Assembly (NCBI GenBank): GCA_951406725.2
Contig: OX597815.1
Coordinates: forward strand, 106,702,001 to 106,766,000
Reading direction: 5' to 3'
From: Octopus vulgaris
Lineage: Eukaryota
Length of the DNA: 64,000 bases
This document shows, piece after piece, positions 11,250 to 56,535 of the stretch (position 1 is its first letter; each line of letters begins with the position of its first letter). The translations under genes were made by a program, and so were the position numbers. The notes below the pieces were generated by a model that saw only the letters and a list, made by a program, of their open reading frames with translations, did not search any database and was not told the origin of the DNA.

Positions 11250-12033
11250 AGAAACATGTTTCAAAAAGAAAATAGAAAGTACACGTGGAAAAGATATGAG
11301 GAAAGTAAGAAGAAAAAGAGGATGTTCTGTGGGTTGTATTGTACTATCTTCTCATAGTAAATATTGTATTCCAACAAGGAGAGTATCAAATTTTTATAGT
11401 ACTCGATGTCCGTCACTACTACCGCACTTCCTTTATCAGTTTCTTTAATAGTCAGGTTTATGTCATTTTAAACTCGGTCAGGTTTTTCTGCTGATTTGTG
11501 TTAAGGTATGATATATATACTTGTTTTTGTAGGGTATTGAAAGGAAAATTGGTATTGTGTTCACAAAAATCATCAAGTACTTTATTTCTCACTTTTGTAG
11601 GACAGTATTCGCTTTTGTTTTTTACTATTGAGTCATCTTCGCTGGTGTAGTTGTGAAGTGCTTCTGTGAGGGGCAATTTGCGACAAAAATCCATAGTGTT
11701 ATCCTTAATTTCATTCGAGTTTGATCTGCGAGGGGTTGGTGTAAACTTTAAACCTCTTGCTAGAATTTTAGTTTGTGTAGTACTTAGGATTTTCTTTGAT
11801 AAGTTGATTATTTTCGGTTGTCCTCGTACATTTTGTTTTATATATATATATATATATATATCTATATATATATACACGACAGGATTCTTTCAGCTTCCGT
11901 CTACCAATCCACTCACAAGGCTTTGGTCTACACGAGGCTATAGTAGAAGACACTTGCCCAAGGTGCCACGCAGTGGGACTAAACCAGGAACCATGTGGTT
12001 GGTAAGCAAGCTACGTACCACACAGCCACTTCT

Positions 12034-18479: not shown

Positions 18480-19733
18480 CAGGGGTTGGACAGAATAATG
18501 GAAGCACCTAGCATCATAATTTTGAAATATCTATAAAACCGTCAAAAGCTTGTTTATTTTTATGTTTTTTGATTTATTATTAGTGTTGCTTAATATATTT
18601 TGCTAAAATTGTTGTTTCTTTTCAGATATCAGAAAAAGGTTATTAAAATTCATTAAAATCACAGATCTATCGAACTTTCAAAGAGGTCAAATTGTTGATG
18701 CTCGTATGGCAGGCGTTAGCATAACGAAAACAACCGAAATGTTTGGTGCATCACGAGGTACTGTCCCGAAAGTAATGACAGCCTTTGAGAAAGAGGGAAA
18801 AAACTTCGTCGAAACAAAACTCTAGAAGAAGACCTTTCAGATAGGGACCGTTAGACTCTTCGGCGAATTGTAAGAAAAGATCATAAAAGAACAGCTCCCA
18901 GAATTACTACAGAGCTTAATGACCACCTTGAGAACCCAGTTTCCACAAGAACTGTTCGCCGGGAACTGTACAAAGCCGGATTCCACGGGAGAGCTGCAAT
19001 CAGAAAACCACTACTTTCAAAAATAAACGTTGCAAAGCATTTAGAGTGGAGTAAAAACTTACAGAATTGGTCCCTAGAGCAGTGGAAGAATGTCATTTTC
19101 TCGGACGAGTCATCCTTTACCTTATTTCCGACCACCGGCCGAATATACGTGTGGTGACAGCCAAAAGAAGCATTTGGCTCAGACTGCCTTCTTCCAACTG
19201 TTAAACATGGAGGAAGATCTGTGATGATCTGGGGAGCTATATCTTGGAAATCCGCCGGCCCAATGGTTTCCCTTTATGGCAGAATTAATAGTCAAGACTG
19301 TTTAAGCATTTTATCTGATCAAATTCATCATATGGTTGCAGAACTGTTTCCGGAGGGAAACGCAATCTTTCAGGATAATAATGCGCCAATTCACACGGTA
19401 AAGTTGTTACTGAATGGCACGAAGAATATTCTAGTGAAGTTGAACATCTCATCTGGCCATCACATCCTCCAGACCTCAATATTATTGAACATTTATGGTG
19501 CATTTTAGAAAAACAAGTAAGGAGTCGATATCCTCCACCATAATCACTACAAGAACTGGAGACTGTTTTAGCCGAAGAATGGACAAAAATTCCTTTTGAA
19601 ACAATTCAAATTTTGTACTAGTCCATACCTCGTGGAATTCAAGCTGTAATTACTGCCAAAGGCTGTCCTAACCCATATTAAAATGAATTTTTTTGAAGTT
19701 TTAAGGTGTTTCCATTATTTTGACCAACCTCTG
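18480..19733 (+). mobile_element. full-length Tc1-family DNA transposon, inactivated
   Basis: TA|CAGGGGTTGGACAGAATAATGGAAGCACCT ... AGGTGTTTCCATTATTTTGACCAACCTCTG|TA inverted termini; ~1.25 kb. Confidence 0.93.
18658..19681 (+). pseudogene. Tc1 DD34E transposase pseudogene
   Basis: DLSNFQRGQIVDARMAG (HTH region), WKNVIFSDES, VKHGGRSVMIWGAISW, FQDNNAPIH, PDLNIIEHLW and AKGCPNPY*. Frameshifts and in-frame stops are present. Confidence 0.9.
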
Positions 19734-24540: not shown

Positions 24541-24552
<12 letters not shown>

Positions 24553-24800
24553 GAAATAAGGTACTCAAACATCTGGATGGTTTTATATTTACAGATTTTT
24601 ATTAATATGTCACATGTTTTTATAAATCATATATTAGCGTTTGTATCCACTCTAGTGGATCCTTCAGATTGAAGAGCGGTGTTCCCAAGAGTGGATGCAA
24701 GCGCTATTATATGATTTATAAAAACATGTGACATATTAATAAAAATCTATAAATATAAAACCATCCAGATTTCTGAGTACCTTATTTTGTCTAATATATA
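24541..24800. repeat. long inverted repeat (arms ~24541-24653 and 24688-24800) adjoining (TA)n; PLE pLTR-like
   Basis: AAATAAGGTACTC...CCACTCT vs AGAGTGG...GAGTACCTTATTT. The GAGTACCTTATTT terminus recurs at ~52964. Confidence 0.88.
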
Positions 24801-26819: not shown

Positions 26820-27135
26820 ATGGGCTAAAGAGTTTCTATTTTGGATATATTTGGGGTACTTAGTTGTGCTCATGACTTAGTGTTCACTTCTTCCATGGGT
26901 ATAAGTAAGTATTTCACTTATTTCTTTGCCGCATTTATCACTGAGGAGGGAAGGTTCTTATGAACTAACTCTGAAATTGGGTCCGATATGGTAATAACGG
27001 AATTTTTTAAGAAATTTCCGTTGGCTTTCTTCGAAACGCGTGCTTGTAGTGATAAATTACACGGTTATTGACGTTGTGTCTATTTTCGGCATATTTTGGC
27101 ATTAGAAATTTTTTATTTTGCCCTTACTTATAAAT
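26820..27135 (+). mobile_element. PLE pseudo-LTR-like element (family P1) ending in (TA)n, with a hammerhead-like core
   Basis: ATTTATCA-CTGAGGA(26941)-GGGAAGG...CTTTCTTC-GAAA(27033)-CGCGTGCTTGTA-GTGATAAAT; homologous to 21473-21791 and 31471-31721. Confidence 0.6.
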
Positions 27136-43033: not shown

Positions 43034-44289
43034 TCAGGTCATCCCGTAAGTTCTGTCCGAATTTTGAATAAAGAAAACAAGTGAGCAAATGTTATATTTA
43101 ATTGAAATTTAATCATCAATGTACTTTCCCTGATTATCTATGACTTCCTTCCATCTATTTACAAGCTTTTTAATCCTATCAATGTAAAACTCTTTTGGTT
43201 TCAAAGCGAAGAACTCTGAAATGTCAGTTTCAACCTCCTCCTGGCTTGCGAAAGTTATGTCCCTTAAATGATTCTGTAGACTACGAAACAAATGGTAGTA
43301 TGAAGGAGCAAGGTTGCGAAAATAAGGTGAATGATGAATTTTTTTTACCCAGTGAAGCTCTTCGATCATCTGTGATGTGATATTTGCAGTGCAGGGTAGT
43401 GCATTGTCCTGATGAGACATCACTCCTTTTCGATTCACTAAAGCGGGTCTTTTTTTCTTCAAAGATTGGTTCAAACGCTCTAATTGCTGGCAGTAGACTT
43501 GAGCATTGGTTGTTGCATTAGGTGGTAACAATTTAAAGTGAATTACTCCTTTGCAATCCCACCAGATAGAGAGAAGGACCCTTTCCCTTTGAAGTTTCCT
43601 TCTCAGTTGTGGTTGAACTTTTCCCCTTTTACCAAGCCACTGTCTACGACGTTTAACATTTCGGTAGAAGATCCATTTTTCGTGACCAATCACAAGTCTA
43701 TCCAAAATGGGTGAAATGAGTTCGCGAGAATGGAGAGAAAAGCAGATGTCAACTCGGGATTTGCGGTTGCTTTCGGACAATTCATGAGGCACCCATTTTC
43801 CAAGCTTAGGAACCTTTCCAAGTTGTTGAAGATGACGATGAACAGTTGTATGGTTTGAACTAAGCTTTATTGCCAATTCTTCAACTGATTAATGCAGGAT
43901 TTTCTTCAAGTAATGTCTCAAGGAACTTATCCTCAAACTCAACTGGACGTCCTGTTCGATCTTCATCTTCAAGGATGAAATCTCCACTTTTGAATTTTGC
44001 AAACCATCTTCTGTAAGTTCTGTCATTCAAGCATTTTTTCCCATAAACTGAGTGTATGCTTCGAGTCGCCTCAGCTGCAGAGTTTCCTTTTCTGTACTCA
44101 TAAAGCATTATGTGCCTCAAATGCTCGTTGGATACTTCCATGTTAGAAAGGGTTTTAATCAAAGAAATTTTAATTCTATTATTCTGTAAAATAATATTTA
44201 ATTAGTTTCAATGTACACAAATGCATAAAAATAATTTTTAATTCCATTAGACATTCTAAAATACTATTAAATCTTATGGGATGACCTGA
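43034..44289 (-). mobile_element. full-length mariner DNA transposon, inactivated
   Basis: TA|TCAGGTCATCCCGTAAG ... CTTATGGGATGACCTGA|TA inverted termini; ~1.26 kb. Confidence 0.95.
43109..44141 (-). pseudogene. mariner DD34D transposase pseudogene
   Basis: MEVSNEHLRHIMLYEY..GNSAAEA, WFAKFKSGDF.LEDEDRTGRP, WVPHEL and HQDNA are present. Catalytic residues are lost (TGDEKW->IGHEKW; YSPDLAPSDY->YFRNLAPSYY), and the frame breaks at ~43880. Confidence 0.93.
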
Positions 44290-45079
44290 TAGATAGAGAG
44301 AAACTTCCTGAAAATGTAGGCGATTGATGTCAACAATAATTTTTCGAGTTTCAAAGGTTGATGGTTTCCCAGTACCATTCTTGGTCATTCCTGGGACACC
44401 TACAACAACAGGGATGGTTTTGGTTTTTAATTGCTACGTCCTACATATCTCAATCTCAAGGTCCTTATATTTCGACAGTTTTTCAAATTCTTTTGCTGAG
44501 ATGTTTCTATCCGTAGGTACTGTCATGTCAATTAACGGGTATGTTTTTGTTTTAGGTCTTTTATAGCAATGTCTGGTCTGTTAACATTTATTTGCCTCTC
44601 TGTATGTATTCCATAATCTCATAGGATGGTAGCATTCTCCCCCTCAGTGACTGGCTCTGGGTGGTGTTCATACCAGTTTTTAGGGTGTGGGATACCATTG
44701 TAATGGCATATTATCCAGTGCAAGTATTGGCCAACTCAATCATACCTAGTTAAATATTCTGTAGGAGCAAGGACAAGCAACCGGCAACAACGTAGTCAAT
44801 ACTCTCAAGTTTGTCATTGCAGAGTCTACACTTTGTGTCTACCTCAGTGTGTGTGACTTGATAGTTCCAGGTGAGAAGAATCTTTTTCTTGTGCTGCTAG
44901 GATGAATCTTTCTGTTTCGGCTTTCAAACCACACTCTGCAACCACTGATGGGTTCTTCTCCTATCTACATAAGCTTCCTCAGCTCGTTTGAGGTATTGTC
45001 CATGCAATGGTTTTTCTTCCCATAGTCTTGATATTTCCTTCAAGCTTACCTCTGGCTTTTGTTTTGCACTTTTTTGCTA

Positions 45080-45330
<251 letters not shown>

Positions 45331-45358
45331 TATTATTATTATTATTATTATTATAATA

Positions 45359-45429
<71 letters not shown>

Positions 45430-45442
45430 TCTTCTTCTTCTT

Positions 45443-45526
<84 letters not shown>
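45331..45526. repeat. compound trinucleotide microsatellite (ATT)n(CAT)n(CTT)n(ATT)n
   Basis: Directly visible in the sequence. Confidence 0.95.
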
Positions 45527-45527
<1 letters not shown>

Positions 45528-46310
45528 TATGTTTGACTTTTGCTTTATATTTGTACAAGAGTTGGCTCCAAGTCTCACCCAGAGACCTCAAGAGACAACA
45601 GGTTGGAAGTTCATGTTGTTCTTATGCCTAGTGTGCCATATATTTGATTTTGTATTTAGCGTTGTACTAGTGAATGTCTAAAAAAAACAAAAACAAAAAA
45701 ACATACGAAAATTTTGTTTGTTTTAAAACTTGAGATTACATAGACAGTATTTTGCGTAGGATATGAGCAGTTCCCATGAGCAATATCTTTTGAATTTCTG
45801 CCATTTTGGGGTTTCCTGGTATCTGAGCTACGTAGCAATCAGCCCCTTTTGCTATCATTCTCAGGGCACCTATGACAACAGGTATTGTTTTAGTCTTCAA
45901 GTTCCACATTTTGCTGATTTCTATTTCAAGATCTTTATATTTGCTCAGTTTTTGGTAGGTCTTGACAGATACGTTTATATCGATTGGGACAGTCATATCA
46001 ATGAGGAGGCATGTTCTTTTTCTGAAGTCTTTCAATATGATGTCTGGCCTATTTGCATCTATCTTTCTGTAAGTTTGAATGGTGAAGTTCCAGAGGAGTG
46101 AGATGTGGTCATTTTCAAGCACTGGAGGTGGTTTGTGTTCCCACCAGTTTTTTTCATGGGGCAAATCCAGGTTTTTGCAAATTACTCAGTGAATATATTG
46201 TGCAGCTCTATCATGCCTGTTGAGATACTCTGTAGGCGCAAGAAGACTGCACTTGGAGACAACATGATCAATGGTTTCATTTTGTTGTTGACATACACGA
46301 TATGTTGGGC
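45527..46310 (-). mobile_element. 5'-truncated R4/Dong-type retrotransposon (CCHC + restriction-like endonuclease + 3'UTR) in (TAA)n
   Basis: RVCQQQNETIDHVVSKC...YLNRHD, then ORF 45736-46164 with NRPDII...LIDMTVP...KLSKYKDL...PVVIGAL...TAHILRKILSM. (TAA)n lies on both sides. Confidence 0.9.
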
Positions 46311-46368
<58 letters not shown>

Positions 46369-47364
46369 GAGGGAAAAGGCATACTTGATTCTCAGCCCTA
46401 TAAAATTTCCGAAATTTTGAAATTTGTGTGGGTTTGGTTTAAGAATTTTGTCTAGAAGAATTGTCTGTGGATCAATTTTGTTTTGTAAACTGGTCTGTTT
46501 TACTTGAAAAAATGTACGTTTGTAAAGAAATAGAAGTATTCGTCACTCAAGAATGTAATACAGAAGGAGTGAAAGAGTATTTAAATGAAAACGAAAAGGA
46601 GAGAGACTGAGCTATGCTTTAATTCAAAAAATTCCGTTTTACTAGAAACACTGCGGAGGCAATCATGACAATGACAGACAATCTCAAGAGAGGAAAACAT
46701 ATTTGTGTCGTCTACTTGTGATTTTGAGAGAAAAAAAAATAAACAAAAAACAAACAAACAAACAAAACAATAACAAAAAACGGAAAACATAAAACAATAA
46801 CGAAACCAGAACTAAAACTTCGTTTTCTGCGATAACTAGCAATGAATGGTTCAGTCACTTGATCGGCAAGGAAGAAAATGTGAAAAGTTATAAATGCAAT
46901 ATCATACACCCGGGACTGATGAAACTTCTAATCGTTGGGGTATAAAACACAAAAAAGTTTGTAATTGTATAAACAGAAAAGAAAACCACAGTATTCCATT
47001 CCAGCACAAGGGGAAAAATGTCTGCAGGAAGTGTGCTCTACAGTAGGATATGTGATAAGAGCCTAACAGCATGCGACGGTTACTGTTTGCAACAGCAAGG
47101 TGGAAGCCAGATCTGTGGCTTTAACCACTTACTTATTACATCAGTTTATCATGCACCCATTATATATGAGAAGTCTTGTAAGGAACATTCAAGTCACTTA
47201 TTTGTCACTCGTCAGGGAACAAGACAGAGTGGTAACAATGGTGGATGAGCAGAGAGAGATGAAAGCATTCAAATCCAATCTCCGGTAAAATTAAATAGCG
47301 ATGTGGAACCAATAAAAACTTATTTTCACTATTATTAATATCATCATCATCATCATCGTCATCA

Positions 47365-51173: not shown

Positions 51174-51552
51174 ACCCCAACCCCACCCACACACATTTAA
51201 AACACATTTAGATATCTATATAAGACGGCTTTTTAAAGCTTCCGTTCCATGAAGTCAACTGTCAAGGTTTGGGCTATAATAAAATATTGTTATTAAATTA
51301 TATTTCATTAATATTTAGCAGAAGCTAACGCACGAAACACTCGGTTGTTGAGTCACTCAGTTACTTCTACTAAATATCTAGGTTAATATTATTATTAATA
51401 ATAATAATAATATATATATATATATGTATATGTATATTTTCGTCCTTAATTTTCGCTTCTTTATCTATATATCTATTTATTTATATTACCATGTTTTTTT
51501 CACGTCCGCGTGTATTTATGTATATATATTTATATATTTATTTATATATTTA

Positions 51553-51939
51553 CTAGCAGTATCGCCCGGCGTTGCTCAGGTTTGTAAGGGAAATAACTAT
51601 AAAGCATCTTTAGAGAGTTATAGCCAAAAAATAGCAAAAAAATGGAAAAAAAATGATGGTAAATTTTTTTTTGAGAGTAAAAAAAGGTTGAGTTGCGTCC
51701 CCTAGACAGTCTGTGGTTTGTTTTTTTTTATTCTCGACCCCATGTCGAATTTATCGATTTTTTTCAGAACTGGGGGAACTTTTCAAAATTTTCGCTGCGT
51801 TAGTTTTGAATTATGACATTGGGCTATGCGTGTGTCAAGTTTCATCAGAATCGGTTGAAAGCCGTGGTCAGGGTGAGGGTACGAGAAAACAGACACACAG
51901 AAACACGCACAGACAAACTGCCGTTTATATATAGAGAGA
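51553..51939 (-). mobile_element. non-autonomous Helitron
   Basis: Minus strand begins A|TCTCTCTATATATAAAC and ends with the GC-rich hairpin CCTGAGCAACGCCGGG, then ...CTGCTAG|T. This gives 5'-TC, 3'-CTAG, an A|T target and no TSD. Confidence 0.8.
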
Positions 51940-52305
51940 TATACATAGATACTTTTTTTATACTCTTATATATATTTTTTATATTCTTATATATTTTTTT
52001 ATATTCTTATATCTTTTTTTACATTCTTATATCTTTTTTTATATATTTTTAAAAATTTTACTCTTTTGTAATCTTTTACTCTTCTACTCCCCCTTTGTGA
52101 GCCCTAACTCACTAAAGATTCAACCCCCCAACCCCTTCCCTCTCTAGCTCAATATCCAAACTTCCCCATTCTACATCGAGTCAAAAGCGGGATGGACGCT
52201 TCGATTTCGTGTTGGTGCCCCACTCTGTCGTACGCAACTATGAGGATTTGCATCCCCAACGTAAAACTTATAATGTAATATATGTCCTTGAAGTAGTAAT
52301 TGTAC

Positions 52306-52393
52306 GCGGCTGAAGAAGGCCATAGACACACATTTACATCAATTATGCATTGTTATAAAACCGTCTAATAAAGGCCCGAAACATATGTACCGC
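52306..52393 (+). ncRNA. minimal type I hammerhead ribozyme in a PLE pLTR-like element (~51950-52500)
   Basis: GCGG-CTGAAGA-AGGCC...GGCCC-GAAA-CATATG-TA-CCGC. Stem I is GCGG/CCGC, the core is intact, stem II is GGCC/GGCC, stem III is short and palindromic (ACATATGT), and the cleavage triplet is GUA. Confidence 0.75.
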
Positions 52394-52495
52394 TAAATCC
52401 TTTGAATCATGTTTTTATTTTGATTAATATACTCTATCACCTACACCACTAAATGGTATATACAGGTGCTTACAACTATCAAGTATTCACCCTGA

Positions 52496-52555
<60 letters not shown>

Positions 52556-52564
<9 letters not shown>

Positions 52565-52716
52565 GTGTATAAAAATTATACACAAAGGGAAAAGCCACTA
52601 AGTGGTTTTCCAGCACGCTATAAATGGGAGTTAAATCCCAAACCACGAAAAACCTATTCTTATTTTAAATAAGTGGCTTCTCCCTTCGTGTATAATTTTT
52701 ATACACATATAATATA
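52556..52716. repeat. inverted repeat adjoining (TA)n
   Basis: TGTATAAAAATTATACACAAAGGGAAAAGCCACT vs AGTGGCTTCTCCCTTCGTGTATAATTTTTATACA. Confidence 0.8.
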
Positions 52717-52810
52717 TTTGCAGTCTAGGGATATTTTTACTCACGTTGGTCACTGGTAAAAATTAATATTTAAATGTTTACCCTTTATTCATATATATAT
52801 ATATATATAT

Positions 52811-52942
52811 ATTTATTTTATAGAAGGAGCTTTTACAAGACTAGAACTGTTTCATTCAGATGAAATCTTCAGGAAGCTTCCTGAAGATTTCATCTGAATG
52901 AAACAGTTCTAGTCCTGTAGAAGCTCCTTCTATAAAATAAAT
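52811..52942. repeat. 132-bp near-perfect palindrome (two mirrored hammerheads)
   Basis: Centred on AAG|CTT (52876/52877), with two mismatches between the arms. Confidence 0.95.
52875..52925 (+). ncRNA. type I hammerhead ribozyme (mirror copy on the - strand at 52828-52878)
   Basis: AGCTTC-CTGAAGA-TTTCATCTGAAT-GAAA-CAG-TTCTAGTC-CTG-TA-GAAGCT. It has a 6-bp stem I, an intact core, a weak 3-bp stem II, a 4-bp stem III and a GUA site. Confidence 0.75.
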
Positions 52943-53022
52943 TACTTTATTCTGCAATGTATTGAGTACCTTATTTACTGTGGTTAACCCCGACTCAACC
53001 CGGGACCTACATATATATATAT

Positions 53023-53284
53023 AGTACAATAGTAATGGCTTGTTACTGCTCCAAATGTGTCAGGAACTAGATTTATGCCATGTTCCAGCAGAAAGATACT
53101 GAACCATATGGTTACATTCAGGCTCGAAGCAGTGGGATATAATTGATTTTGTTTTTGCTTGTGAGCGTGATGTTCATGATGTGTTGAATCAGCATAGACG
53201 GGGAATTTAATGCTGGACTGGCCTTTGTCTTGTTCGTGTAAAAGTGAACTTTATTATCAAACCGAGGGTAAGAGCCAATGATAT

Positions 53285-53290
<6 letters not shown>
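53023..53290 (+). repeat. 268-bp duplicate of 55055-55322 inserted in a (TA)n tract
   Basis: AGTACAATAGTAATGGC...GATATGACTAT appears identical by eye to the downstream RTE endonuclease segment; (TA)n lies on both sides. Confidence 0.93.
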
Positions 53291-54899: not shown

Positions 54900-56535
54900 T
54901 GGCAATACGGACTCCAGAACGGATAATAAAAGAGTCTGGCTCGGCAGGTGCAAGATTCTTTGTGCTGATAAAGTTGTCACATTTGGTGACGTCAGTGCAA
55001 AATTTGACAAGGATTACTAAACCGGGAATGAAGTCGGGAAACATAGAGCTAGAAAGTACAATAGTAATGGCTTGTTACTGCTCCAAATGTGTCAGGAACT
55101 AGATTTATGCCATGTTCCAGCAGAAAGATACTGAACCATATGGTTACATTCAGGCTCGAAGCAGTGGGATATAATTGATTTTGTTTTTGCTTGTGAGCGT
55201 GATGTTCATGATGTGTTGAATCAGCATAGACGGGGAATTTAATGCTGGACTGGCCTTTGTCTTGTTCGTGTAAAAGTGAACTTTATTATCAAACCGAGGG
55301 TAAGAGCCAATGATATGACTATCTAAAAGAAATTAATTGTAACTCGTTTGAAAGATGATGCTATTAAGGAAAAGTTGGCGAAGAGAATGGTCAACAAGGA
55401 ATTCAACGACTCGCGGGAAGCATCTATGTGTTTAGAGGAAAGAAAATATTGAAGATGGTTTCATGAAAATGAAGTTCAGACACTATTAAATGACAAAGAT
55501 GTAGCGCTTACAAGAATCTTTGGTAGAGAACCAGAAAAGCCTAAGAACGAACCTTGTACATGCAGATGAAGTGTAAGGTACAGCATCGGTTTTGTGGCAT
55601 ACTAAATACTTTGTGGGAATAAAGTACACTGTACAGTATATCCGATGGCAAATGTATGTAAATGACATTGAAGTTCTCGAACGTTCTCAGCCTACCAGTG
55701 CAGAAACTCTCGTACTTTAGCACCGATTATGAAGGAGTGGTCATGTGATGATAATGGAAGATAATCAGGTGCTCAAACAATTATTTCTGTGTGGTGAGTT
55801 AGCCCAGAGTAAGAGACCGTCACACAAACAAAAATTAAGGTATAAGGAAGACATTAAAAATATACTGGAGAAGGTCAAAATCTTGGAAATTGGATAGGAA
55901 TTCCTTGCTCTAGATCAGTGAGGGTTCCCCGGAACCTTAGGGTTCCGCCAGTACAGTCCAGGGGTTCCGCAAGAAGTTACAAAATTGCTAAAATCGGCAG
56001 TAATTTTTAATTCTCCTGTGCAGATATGTGTGCATAAAACTATTAAATTATTGCACAAGGGTTCCTCAAGCCAGTGGAATGTTTCCTTGGGGTTCCGCTC
56101 CAGCAAAAAGTTTGAAAAGCACTGCTCTACATCATTCATCACGGAAGAAAGCAGTCCATGGTGAGAAGAGAGAGTTTGAATCAAATCATATCAAGCATGA
56201 ACAGCTCAGGAGAGATATTCATAAGGATTTTGATGTGAATTTATCTGAGTATACTGGCGCACAGCCTGATGAAACATATAACGAGTGTGGTCGTTTCTGT
56301 CTCAGTAAGGCAAGTCTTAGAAGTCATAAGAGAAGACGCAGACATAGGAAACTTGTTTTCTGTGCATTATATGGCATCCCTGCATGCTAGGTGTGCACAA
56401 AATAATGTGCATCAGGAGGTGAACTGAAAAGTTATCAGAAGTTTCACCAAAGTGGTACTGCAAGATGCACACGTTGTTACATCAATGCAATAAAATGTAA
56501 GTCCCTAGCAGGATTCACAAGCCCAATCCATTCTT
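54900..56535 (+). mobile_element. RTE-clade LINE remnant: APE endonuclease + C-terminus, RT deleted, interrupted by a MITE
   Basis: DKVVTFGDVSAK..GKH..KYNSNGLLLLQMCQEL, FQQK..WLHSGSKQWDIIDFV and WFHENE..LL, then IRWQ..EVLER..GHVM.MED..KQLF.GEL..KR..KLRYKE and the C-terminal ECGRFCLSKASLRSH. Confidence 0.88.
55916..56124. mobile_element. hAT-Charlie-type MITE
   Basis: CAGTG...GTTTGAAAAGCACTG termini, internal GGGTTCC repeats and an 8-bp TSD CTCTAGAT/CTCTACAT (NTCTAGAN target). The LINE frame resumes after it. Confidence 0.85.

Follow-up and report, generated by a model that had tools for sequence, protein, structure and literature searches.

A type I hammerhead motif with a long stem II in Octopus vulgaris, probably at the 3΄ end of a truncated PLE

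Introduction

Hammerhead ribozymes at the ends of Penelope-like elements (PLEs) are established and number in the thousands per animal genome, so that one more lone copy changes little in itself. The locus described here, at positions 52306–52393 of a 64-kb stretch of Octopus vulgaris DNA (hereafter the window), raises a more specific question: is a hammerhead whose stem II encloses 51 nt, lying in DNA with no PLE ORF, a genuine motif and, if so, to what kind of element does it belong and how would it work? A literature search that took in few of the subscription journals returned only one relevant source on cephalopod hammerheads, Craig et al. (PMC8557442), in which a PLE hammerhead is already listed for Octopus bimaculoides. 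Within the same scope, no hammerhead described as having a 'long stem II' was found, and the word 'ribozyme' is absent from the main text of an O. vulgaris repeat paper (PMC13282606). 

An intact type I hammerhead with a palindromic stem III

The 88-nt stretch 52306–52393 of the plus strand shows the full layout of a type I hammerhead with all core bases intact: C3–A9, G12–A15.1 and U16.1 are unchanged, and H17 is A. Each of the parts listed in a first-pass annotation, which had been made from the letters alone, was found in place. The same annotation had reported a stem III of only 2 bp within a palindrome, and indeed the 8-mer 52381–52388 is its own reverse complement. The stems are GC-rich amid DNA of 33% GC. 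The parts of the motif are as follows.

52306..52393, +, whole type I hammerhead motif; taken in isolation, its 88 nt have the junction as their MFE fold
52306..52309, +, stem I 5΄ strand GCGG; four G-C pairs with 52390–52393, pair probability ~0.9 in the isolated motif
52308..52321, +, competing hairpin, a predicted inactive fold of –5.8 kcal/mol that hides C3, U4 and the stem II 5΄ arm
52310..52316, +, core box C3–A9, CUGAAGA, intact in the sequence
52317, +, extra nucleotide N10 (A52317), unpaired, opposite C52377; permitted by the published descriptor
52318..52321, +, stem II 5΄ strand GGCC, a self-complementary 4-mer; pairs with 52373–52376
52322..52372, +, stem II interior, 51 nt; predicted inner helix 52323–27/52363–67
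52367..52372, +, AATAAA hexamer inside stem II; last base 17 nt ahead of the predicted cut
52373..52376, +, stem II 3΄ strand GGCC, from sequence and fold
52377, +, extra nucleotide N11 (C52377); permitted by the published descriptor
52378..52381, +, core box G12–A15.1, GAAA, intact in the sequence
52381..52388, +, palindromic stem III region; 2 bp and a 4-nt loop in the monomer, an 8-bp duplex in the dimer
52382..52387, +, CAUAUG, the six bases between GAAA and UA in the sequence
52387..52389, +, GUA triplet; cut predicted at 52389/52390 from hammerhead numbering
52388..52389, +, UA after CAUAUG in the sequence
52390..52393, +, stem I 3΄ strand CCGC in the sequence

We compared the window with 1000 dinucleotide-shuffled windows using descriptors of increasing tolerance. 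Under a strict descriptor, which requires both core boxes, four or more Watson–Crick pairs in each of stems I and II and a spacer of at most 100 nt, 52306–52393 was the sole match in the 64-kb window, and 2 of the 1000 shuffled windows matched (0/1000 with a palindromic stem III). When G-U pairs were allowed, 18/1000 shuffled windows matched, one of them with the palindrome, and under the loosest descriptor (3/3) the counts rose to 143/1000 and 10/1000, respectively. The loosest descriptor gave three matches in the real window, at 26935, 52306 and 52875; further degenerate hammerheads with one core mismatch were not found in the window. The hammerhead motif at 52306–52393 is thus confirmed as real and above chance. 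The match at 26935–26994 (+) is a weak, hammerhead-like one, obtained with the loosest descriptor only; it has a 3-bp stem II and no palindrome, and lies within chance expectation.

Type of hammerhead

The motif had been described in the first-pass annotation as near-intact and minimal. The catalytic core is in fact fully intact, whereas the word 'minimal' does not hold by the strict published definition, given a loop 3 of 4 nt and a loop 2 of 51 nt. With the strict min-HHR of metazoan PLEs (PMC4209133 Fig. S7) the motif shares the core boxes, stems I and II within the 3–7 bp of the descriptor (4 bp each), the optional N10/N11 and the dimer logic. It departs from it in having six bases (52382–52387) between GAAA and UH, where the descriptor has two and loop 3 is absent, and in its 51-nt loop 2, where the descriptor has 3–10 nt; a search with this descriptor would miss the motif because of the two loops.

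The extra nucleotides flanking stem II fall within the type. The published PLE descriptor permits both an extra N10 and an extra N11 (PMC4209133 Fig. S7), an extra base after A9 is a named hallmark of PLE hammerheads (PMC4209133), and 15 of 26 Hydra-clade rows are unpaired at 10.1/11.1 (14 U-U and one U-C; PMC8557442 File S2). The core can therefore be regarded as intact and the A52317/C52377 apposition as belonging to the type, although an A-C apposition at 10.1/11.1 itself occurs in 0/26 Hydra-clade rows of the available part of that file.

Of the 56 motifs in Figure S3 of Cervera and de la Pena (2014, PMC4209133), five have a small palindromic loop 3 of 4 nt, and the 52306 motif, as judged from its sequence, fits this published variant, in which helix III is small and palindromic. 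With the variants of this kind from Aedes aegypti, Drosophila willistoni and Saccoglossus (PMC4209133) it has in common type I, a short stem I, the extra base after A9, the 4-nt palindromic loop 3, AU-rich flanks and occurrence as a lone motif without an ORF; it differs from them in its 51-nt loop 2 (theirs ≤9 nt), in an extra base before G12 as well and in the absent link to an ORF. With the PLE hammerheads of the Hydra clade (File S2 of PMC8557442, Craig et al. 2021) it shares the unpaired 10.1/11.1 position and the palindromic stem III and, with the elements themselves, a likely end 25–150 nt downstream and perhaps the (TA)n target. It differs from that clade in having A-C rather than U-U or U-C, a stem III one pair shorter than most and a much longer loop 2, in a sequence other than that of Hydra-1_Obim, and in offering no ORF by which the clade could be fixed.

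The long stem II is the single oddity of this hammerhead. No loop 2 as long as 51 nt occurs among the 56 motifs of Cervera 2014 (≤9 nt; PMC4209133) or, in the available part of the source, among the 26 Hydra-clade rows (≤10 nt; PMC8557442). Precedents for a wide spacing of the core boxes in PLE ends are provided by the Selaginella PLE-X1 hammerheads and the Naiad 'HHR_half_core' cases, from which the sequence of 52306 differs: two spike-moss PLE-X hammerheads, flagged as deviating, have loops of ~35 and ~29 nt, and in eight Naiad cases the half-cores lie 35–50 nt apart (PMC8557442). The stem II interior at 52306 can make a 5-bp inner helix (52323–27/52363–67). Among shuffled versions of the interior, 249/1000 were equally stable, so that selection on this helix is unsupported. 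We also considered an ancestor without stem II that paired through the self-complementary arm, and set it aside for lack of evidence.

Folding and predicted activity

The MFE structure of the isolated 88 nt is a three-way junction with its ends in stem I, in which the pair probabilities are ~0.9 for stems I and II and ~0.26 for stem III. As a hairpin, stem III is predicted at +2.4 kcal/mol, against –7.0 kcal/mol for the 8-bp duplex of two copies. For the whole motif, the predicted dimer (–34.1 kcal/mol) is favoured by ~12 kcal/mol over two monomers (2 × –11.1 kcal/mol, together –22.3). The double hammerhead is also the MFE of two 108-nt copies, and in predicted two-copy folds with longer flanks (141 and 249 nt) the 8-bp duplex is kept and stem I is lost.

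From these folds, the 52306 motif is predicted to work like a dimer-type PLE hammerhead. Two copies would exchange strands, so that the 2-bp stem III hairpin of each becomes part of an 8-bp duplex, with the GUA and the stem I strand of either copy completing the core of the other; the cut after GUA would take place only once two copies are paired through stem III. In tandem PLE transcripts, judging from the literature, cleavage would free a unit-length RNA with 2΄,3΄-cyclic phosphate and 5΄-OH ends, which may then be ligated or reverse transcribed by the RT and GIY-YIG nuclease of the element.

The active fold is predicted not to dominate in the native flanks. When 20–80 nt of upstream flank were added, the hairpin 52308–52321 reached a predicted probability of 0.77–0.99 and that of stem I fell to 0.00–0.09; the upstream sequence would thus trap the core in a 4-bp hairpin, and this inactive form would prevail. 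The 64-kb window holds no second compatible copy, and dimer cleavage is therefore impossible in cis at 52306. A heterodimer with the 52875 motif was rejected, as the stem I strands differ and cross-pairing fails. With no partner and an inactive hairpin in its genomic context, this copy is predicted to be largely silent. Of the earlier suggestion that the hammerhead is of the dimer type, the dimer fold itself is borne out by the predicted energies, whereas the partner is missing and the predicted structure in context is inactive. Even where partners exist, activity may be low: tandem PLE-type motifs cleave only weakly in vitro (PMC4209133), and 8 of 9 frog retrozyme dimers tested showed no cleavage (10.64898/2026.07.22.740005).

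The probable 3΄ end and its surroundings

The segments that flank the motif are as follows.

51430..51553, +, T-rich tract by composition (T 56%), preceded by a short (TA)n
51941..52090, +, T-rich tract (T 61%, G 1%) containing a tandem unit of 20 nt; possibly part of the 3΄ UTR of the element
52091..52305, +, upstream segment of 215 nt, unique and non-coding, likely the 3΄ UTR of the element; no Pfam match or PLE motif in any frame, single copy in the window
52394..52498, +, AU-rich 3΄ tail, 105 nt, likely the end of the element; no stable fold (z 0.02)
52499..52557, no strand assigned, (TA)n tract, likely insertion target; starts 105 nt past the motif

The element had been said to terminate about 105 nt after the hammerhead at (TA)n, and such a tract was confirmed to begin at 52499. 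By arithmetic on File S2 of PMC8557442, the distance from hammerhead to end is ~25–150 nt in 23 of 24 Hydra-clade families; the 105-nt tail falls inside this range on the assumption that the element stops at the edge of the (TA)n tract. The same source gives (TA)n as the target for 19 of 21 Hydra-clade families, with one further family whose target is left blank, and for each of the three Octopus Naiad families that it lists. The 52306 element abuts such a tract, yet dozens of (TA)n tracts are present in the window, and the abutment alone is therefore weak evidence.

Several neighbouring features were observed. The two T-rich tracts were likely once continuous, to judge from their composition, before an insertion at 51554–51940, which is 387 nt long, differs in composition and splits the tract; its ends resemble those of a non-autonomous Helitron-type element. 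Downstream, at 52554–52717, an element of 155 nt with 46-nt terminal inverted repeats (89%), presumably MITE-like, is inserted at the (TA)n edge. Three neighbouring segments end in ACCC (52489, 52780 and 52998), 6–9 nt before (TA)n, with no significant homology by local alignment.

We then examined coding traces of PLEs. No RT or GIY-YIG match by Pfam was obtained next to the hammerhead among all 124 listed frames at 43.9–62 kb, and a Pfam scan of 338 of the 437 listed frames of the window, plus one added, returned no RT core, GIY-YIG or host exon; the matches that it did return were to transposase and zf-RVT domains, together with weak low-complexity matches. In a six-frame scan for PLE motifs, no GxKF and DKG pair lay within 19 kb of 52306: the two occurred together only at 11.4–11.8 kb (–), with isolated matches at 33.1 and 43.1 kb. 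The lack of RT/GIY-YIG is weak evidence, because Pfam also missed the real PLE remnant at 11.5 kb, and absence of the ORF is expected for a 5΄-truncated copy. A direct or inverted repeat of the 52306 segment that could serve as a pLTR was likewise not found, the segment being single-copy in the window. With neither an ORF nor a pLTR found, PLE membership is unproven. The proposal that the segment is the pLTR of a second PLE family is therefore retained as far as the PLE-type hammerhead is concerned, but not for the pLTR, for which there is no second repeat, no upstream RT/GIY-YIG remnant and no paralogue in the sequences searched. The accompanying claim that the segment is unrelated to the 52875 ribozyme was upheld: 491 of 500 shuffles align equally well, and only the core box is common to the two.

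Searches for relatives were similarly negative. In the 64-kb window, blastn of 51900–53100 and 52090–52498 returned self and microsatellite matches only. In prokaryotic assemblies (searched as host contamination) the long-loop pattern had 0 matches, and six matches of a short-loop pattern were discarded, with a stem II of 0–1 bp and no homology beyond the pattern. A spurious minus-strand frame, used as a proxy for paralogues, had no protein homologue. A spurious plus-strand frame had one match in 1.84 billion proteins (26 residues at 36% identity, a stretch repeated four times in a 3582-aa protein), which was taken as chance, and a protein search with a frame that we assume to be SINE-like found no match. 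A tRNA-derived SINE head upstream was rejected as well (ARAGORN, 0 genes), and so was a relationship of the element to 52713–52791 or 51240–51410, for which 370/500 and 64/500 shuffles, respectively, score equally. Within the available part of PMC8557442, no match to the 3΄ ends of Hydra-1_Obim, Naiad_Obim, Naiad_Ovul or Naiad_Omin was seen by eye; the Octopus Naiad ends carry the core boxes in reverse order and show no resemblance to the 52306 element. A short-word search of the available supplement gave no family-level match, one 10-letter word lying inside an oyster Naiad, and the 52306 tail bears a by-eye likeness to some Hydra-clade tails (PMC8557442).

Origin of the motif

We consider it likely that 52306–52393 is the 3΄ end of a 5΄-truncated PLE, or of a non-autonomous derivative of one, inserted at (TA)n. 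The ribozyme type, the tail length, the T-rich upstream tract and the (TA)n abutment favour a PLE 3΄ end, and two other PLE traces in the window (52811–52942 and 11330–11840) support it. The ORF would have been lost here by 5΄ truncation, and no tandem copy is present; in genomes, PLE hammerheads are mostly lone motifs belonging to truncated elements (PMC4209133).

It is rather unlikely that the locus is instead a solo non-LTR retrozyme, that is, a non-coding unit of ~400 nt (52091–52498) that cleaves elsewhere, either singly or within tandem arrays, and that is circularised and re-inserted by PLE enzymes. The length of the unique segment, 408 nt, agrees with retrozyme repeats of 150–450 bp and with mussel units of 350–390 bp that lack the usual tertiary contacts, and the segment has no ORF. 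Invertebrate retrozyme hammerheads are said typically to have a 2-bp stem III with a tetraloop (PMC7229834); solo copies exist and derive from PLE ends (10.64898/2026.07.22.740005). The element thus resembles the metazoan non-LTR retrozymes of these two sources in being non-coding, ~400 nt long and of type I, with the same stem III and loop. However, it is not tandem, no tandem units of 150–450 bp being present in the window, and it is without the short loop 2 needed for the loop 1–loop 2 contact. Stem I has 4 bp rather than the canonical 6 and the extra N10/N11 are present, both of them PLE traits, and the (TA)n end and the T-rich tract upstream are in keeping with a PLE 3΄ end.

A second alternative concerns stem II: the hammerhead would be an otherwise ordinary PLE hammerhead, now dead, whose long stem II is a copy-specific accident. 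Such an accident could have been an insertion of 49–50 nt with a 5–6 nt target duplication (52316–21 = 52371–76) or the expansion of a short loop. The stem II arms do repeat each other exactly, in direct orientation, over 6 nt; the interior, no more stable than its shuffles (249/1000), has short imperfect inverted ends. Nevertheless, a self-complementary arm yields a direct repeat by itself, and a Culex motif has the same repeat around an 8-nt loop (Cervera Fig. S3, PMC4209133). Moreover, if one repeat unit were removed, the core boxes would be only 6 nt apart, which is not enough to make a stem II hairpin, and loops of ~29 and ~35 nt are on record in the two spike-moss PLE-X hammerheads (PMC8557442). 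We regard an accident of this kind as improbable.

That the layout arose by chance in AT-rich, repeat-rich DNA, without any ribozyme ancestry, appears very improbable, despite several null results that are consistent with it. The folding energy of the isolated motif was no better than that of shuffles (z +0.42; 127/200 equally stable), and the same was true with flanks (z +0.95; 164/200). Rfam gave 0 hammerhead matches at gathering and none among 25 matches at E ≤ 10, missing the short-loop 52875 motif too, and no relative was found in the window or in prokaryotic assemblies. A rate of 0.2–1.8% per window, multiplied by the tens of thousands of windows in a large genome, would also give many false matches, and the loosest descriptor, matched by 143/1000 shuffles, picks up the likely chance site at 26935 as well. 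Against this, the palindromic stem III was found in addition in 0/1000 strict and 1/1000 G-U-tolerant shuffles, and the extra N10, the GC-rich stems, the tail length and the (TA)n abutment all lie outside the descriptor. Recruitment by the host, with the ribozyme acting within a host transcript from an intron or the 3΄ UTR, is extremely unlikely: the core is intact though the ORF is gone, AATAAA and a U-rich stretch frame the cut, and a hammerhead of the discontinuous kind functions in the 3΄ UTRs of mammalian Clec2 (PMC6765202), but no host exon was detected with Pfam in 338 of the 437 listed frames, the site sits in a pile of young repeats and the fold in context is predicted to be inactive.

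A possible poly(A) signal inside stem II

Near the predicted cut we observed, besides the AATAAA hexamer, a U-rich stretch at 52410–52422 and UGUA words at 52301 and 52386. Poly(A) signals act within known spacing rules, and since AATAAA (52367–52372) ends 17 nt before the predicted cut, the poly(A) cleavage window would coincide with the ribozyme site. This placement was noticed after the fact, and 2.6% of plus-strand sites lie 10–30 nt behind such a hexamer. In the available literature, searched with few of the subscription journals, no case of a poly(A) signal paired with PLE hammerheads was found.

A PLE family in which a long-stem-II hammerhead doubles as a 3΄-end switch can be imagined on this basis, although we consider such a family very unlikely. 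Lone transcripts would then adopt the inactive hairpin, leave AATAAA exposed and be polyadenylated; tandem transcripts would dimerise, bury AATAAA and cleave themselves. If this were true, long-arm hammerheads would go unseen by published descriptors, which stop at a loop 2 of ≤10 nt, and might make up a class not yet counted. The 51-nt interior is caught neither by Rfam nor by the published descriptor, which suggests that long-arm variants are missing from present counts. Relatives that keep both the long arm and the poly(A) signal would provide a handle on the role of PLE hammerheads and on the control of their weak cleavage.

Other elements of the window

The palindrome at 52811–52942 is 132 nt long (97%) and holds the second type I hammerhead, 52875–52925 (+), which resembles Hydra-clade rows in its U-U at 10.1/11.1 and in its stem III arms; the minus-strand copy of this hammerhead carries two changes relative to the plus-strand one. 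Over 52811–53011, the tail of the plus-strand copy is 69 nt longer and runs to (TA)n, which is the inverted-pLTR-with-tail layout of PLEs. Diverging repeat-end copies at 24546–24680 (–) and 24680–24800 (+) have a 13–14 nt word in common with the tail of the 52875 element; they end at (TA)-rich sequence, and no hammerhead core was found in them.

At 11330–11840 (–), a frameshifted remnant of an N-terminal PLE ORF, with GxKF and DKG, starts at (TA)n. These motifs point to a non-Hydra clade; among longer proteins the remnant had no match, and the Atlas leads were all sub-0.9.

A GAAAC-containing stretch at 51325–51365 (+) resembles the 3΄ half of a decayed hammerhead, with no 5΄ core box at ≤1 mismatch and no homology to the 52306 element. 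An identical direct duplication of 264 nt (53024–53287 = 55056–55319) has its copies 2 kb apart, the second amid LINE-like fragments, and LINE 3΄ remnants with zf-RVT matches lie at 44753–46542 (–) beside (ATT)n tracts. Broken transposase genes of the mariner and Tc1 types are present at 43112–44201 (–) and 18607–19505 (+), respectively (Pfam PF01359, PF01498 and PF13518).
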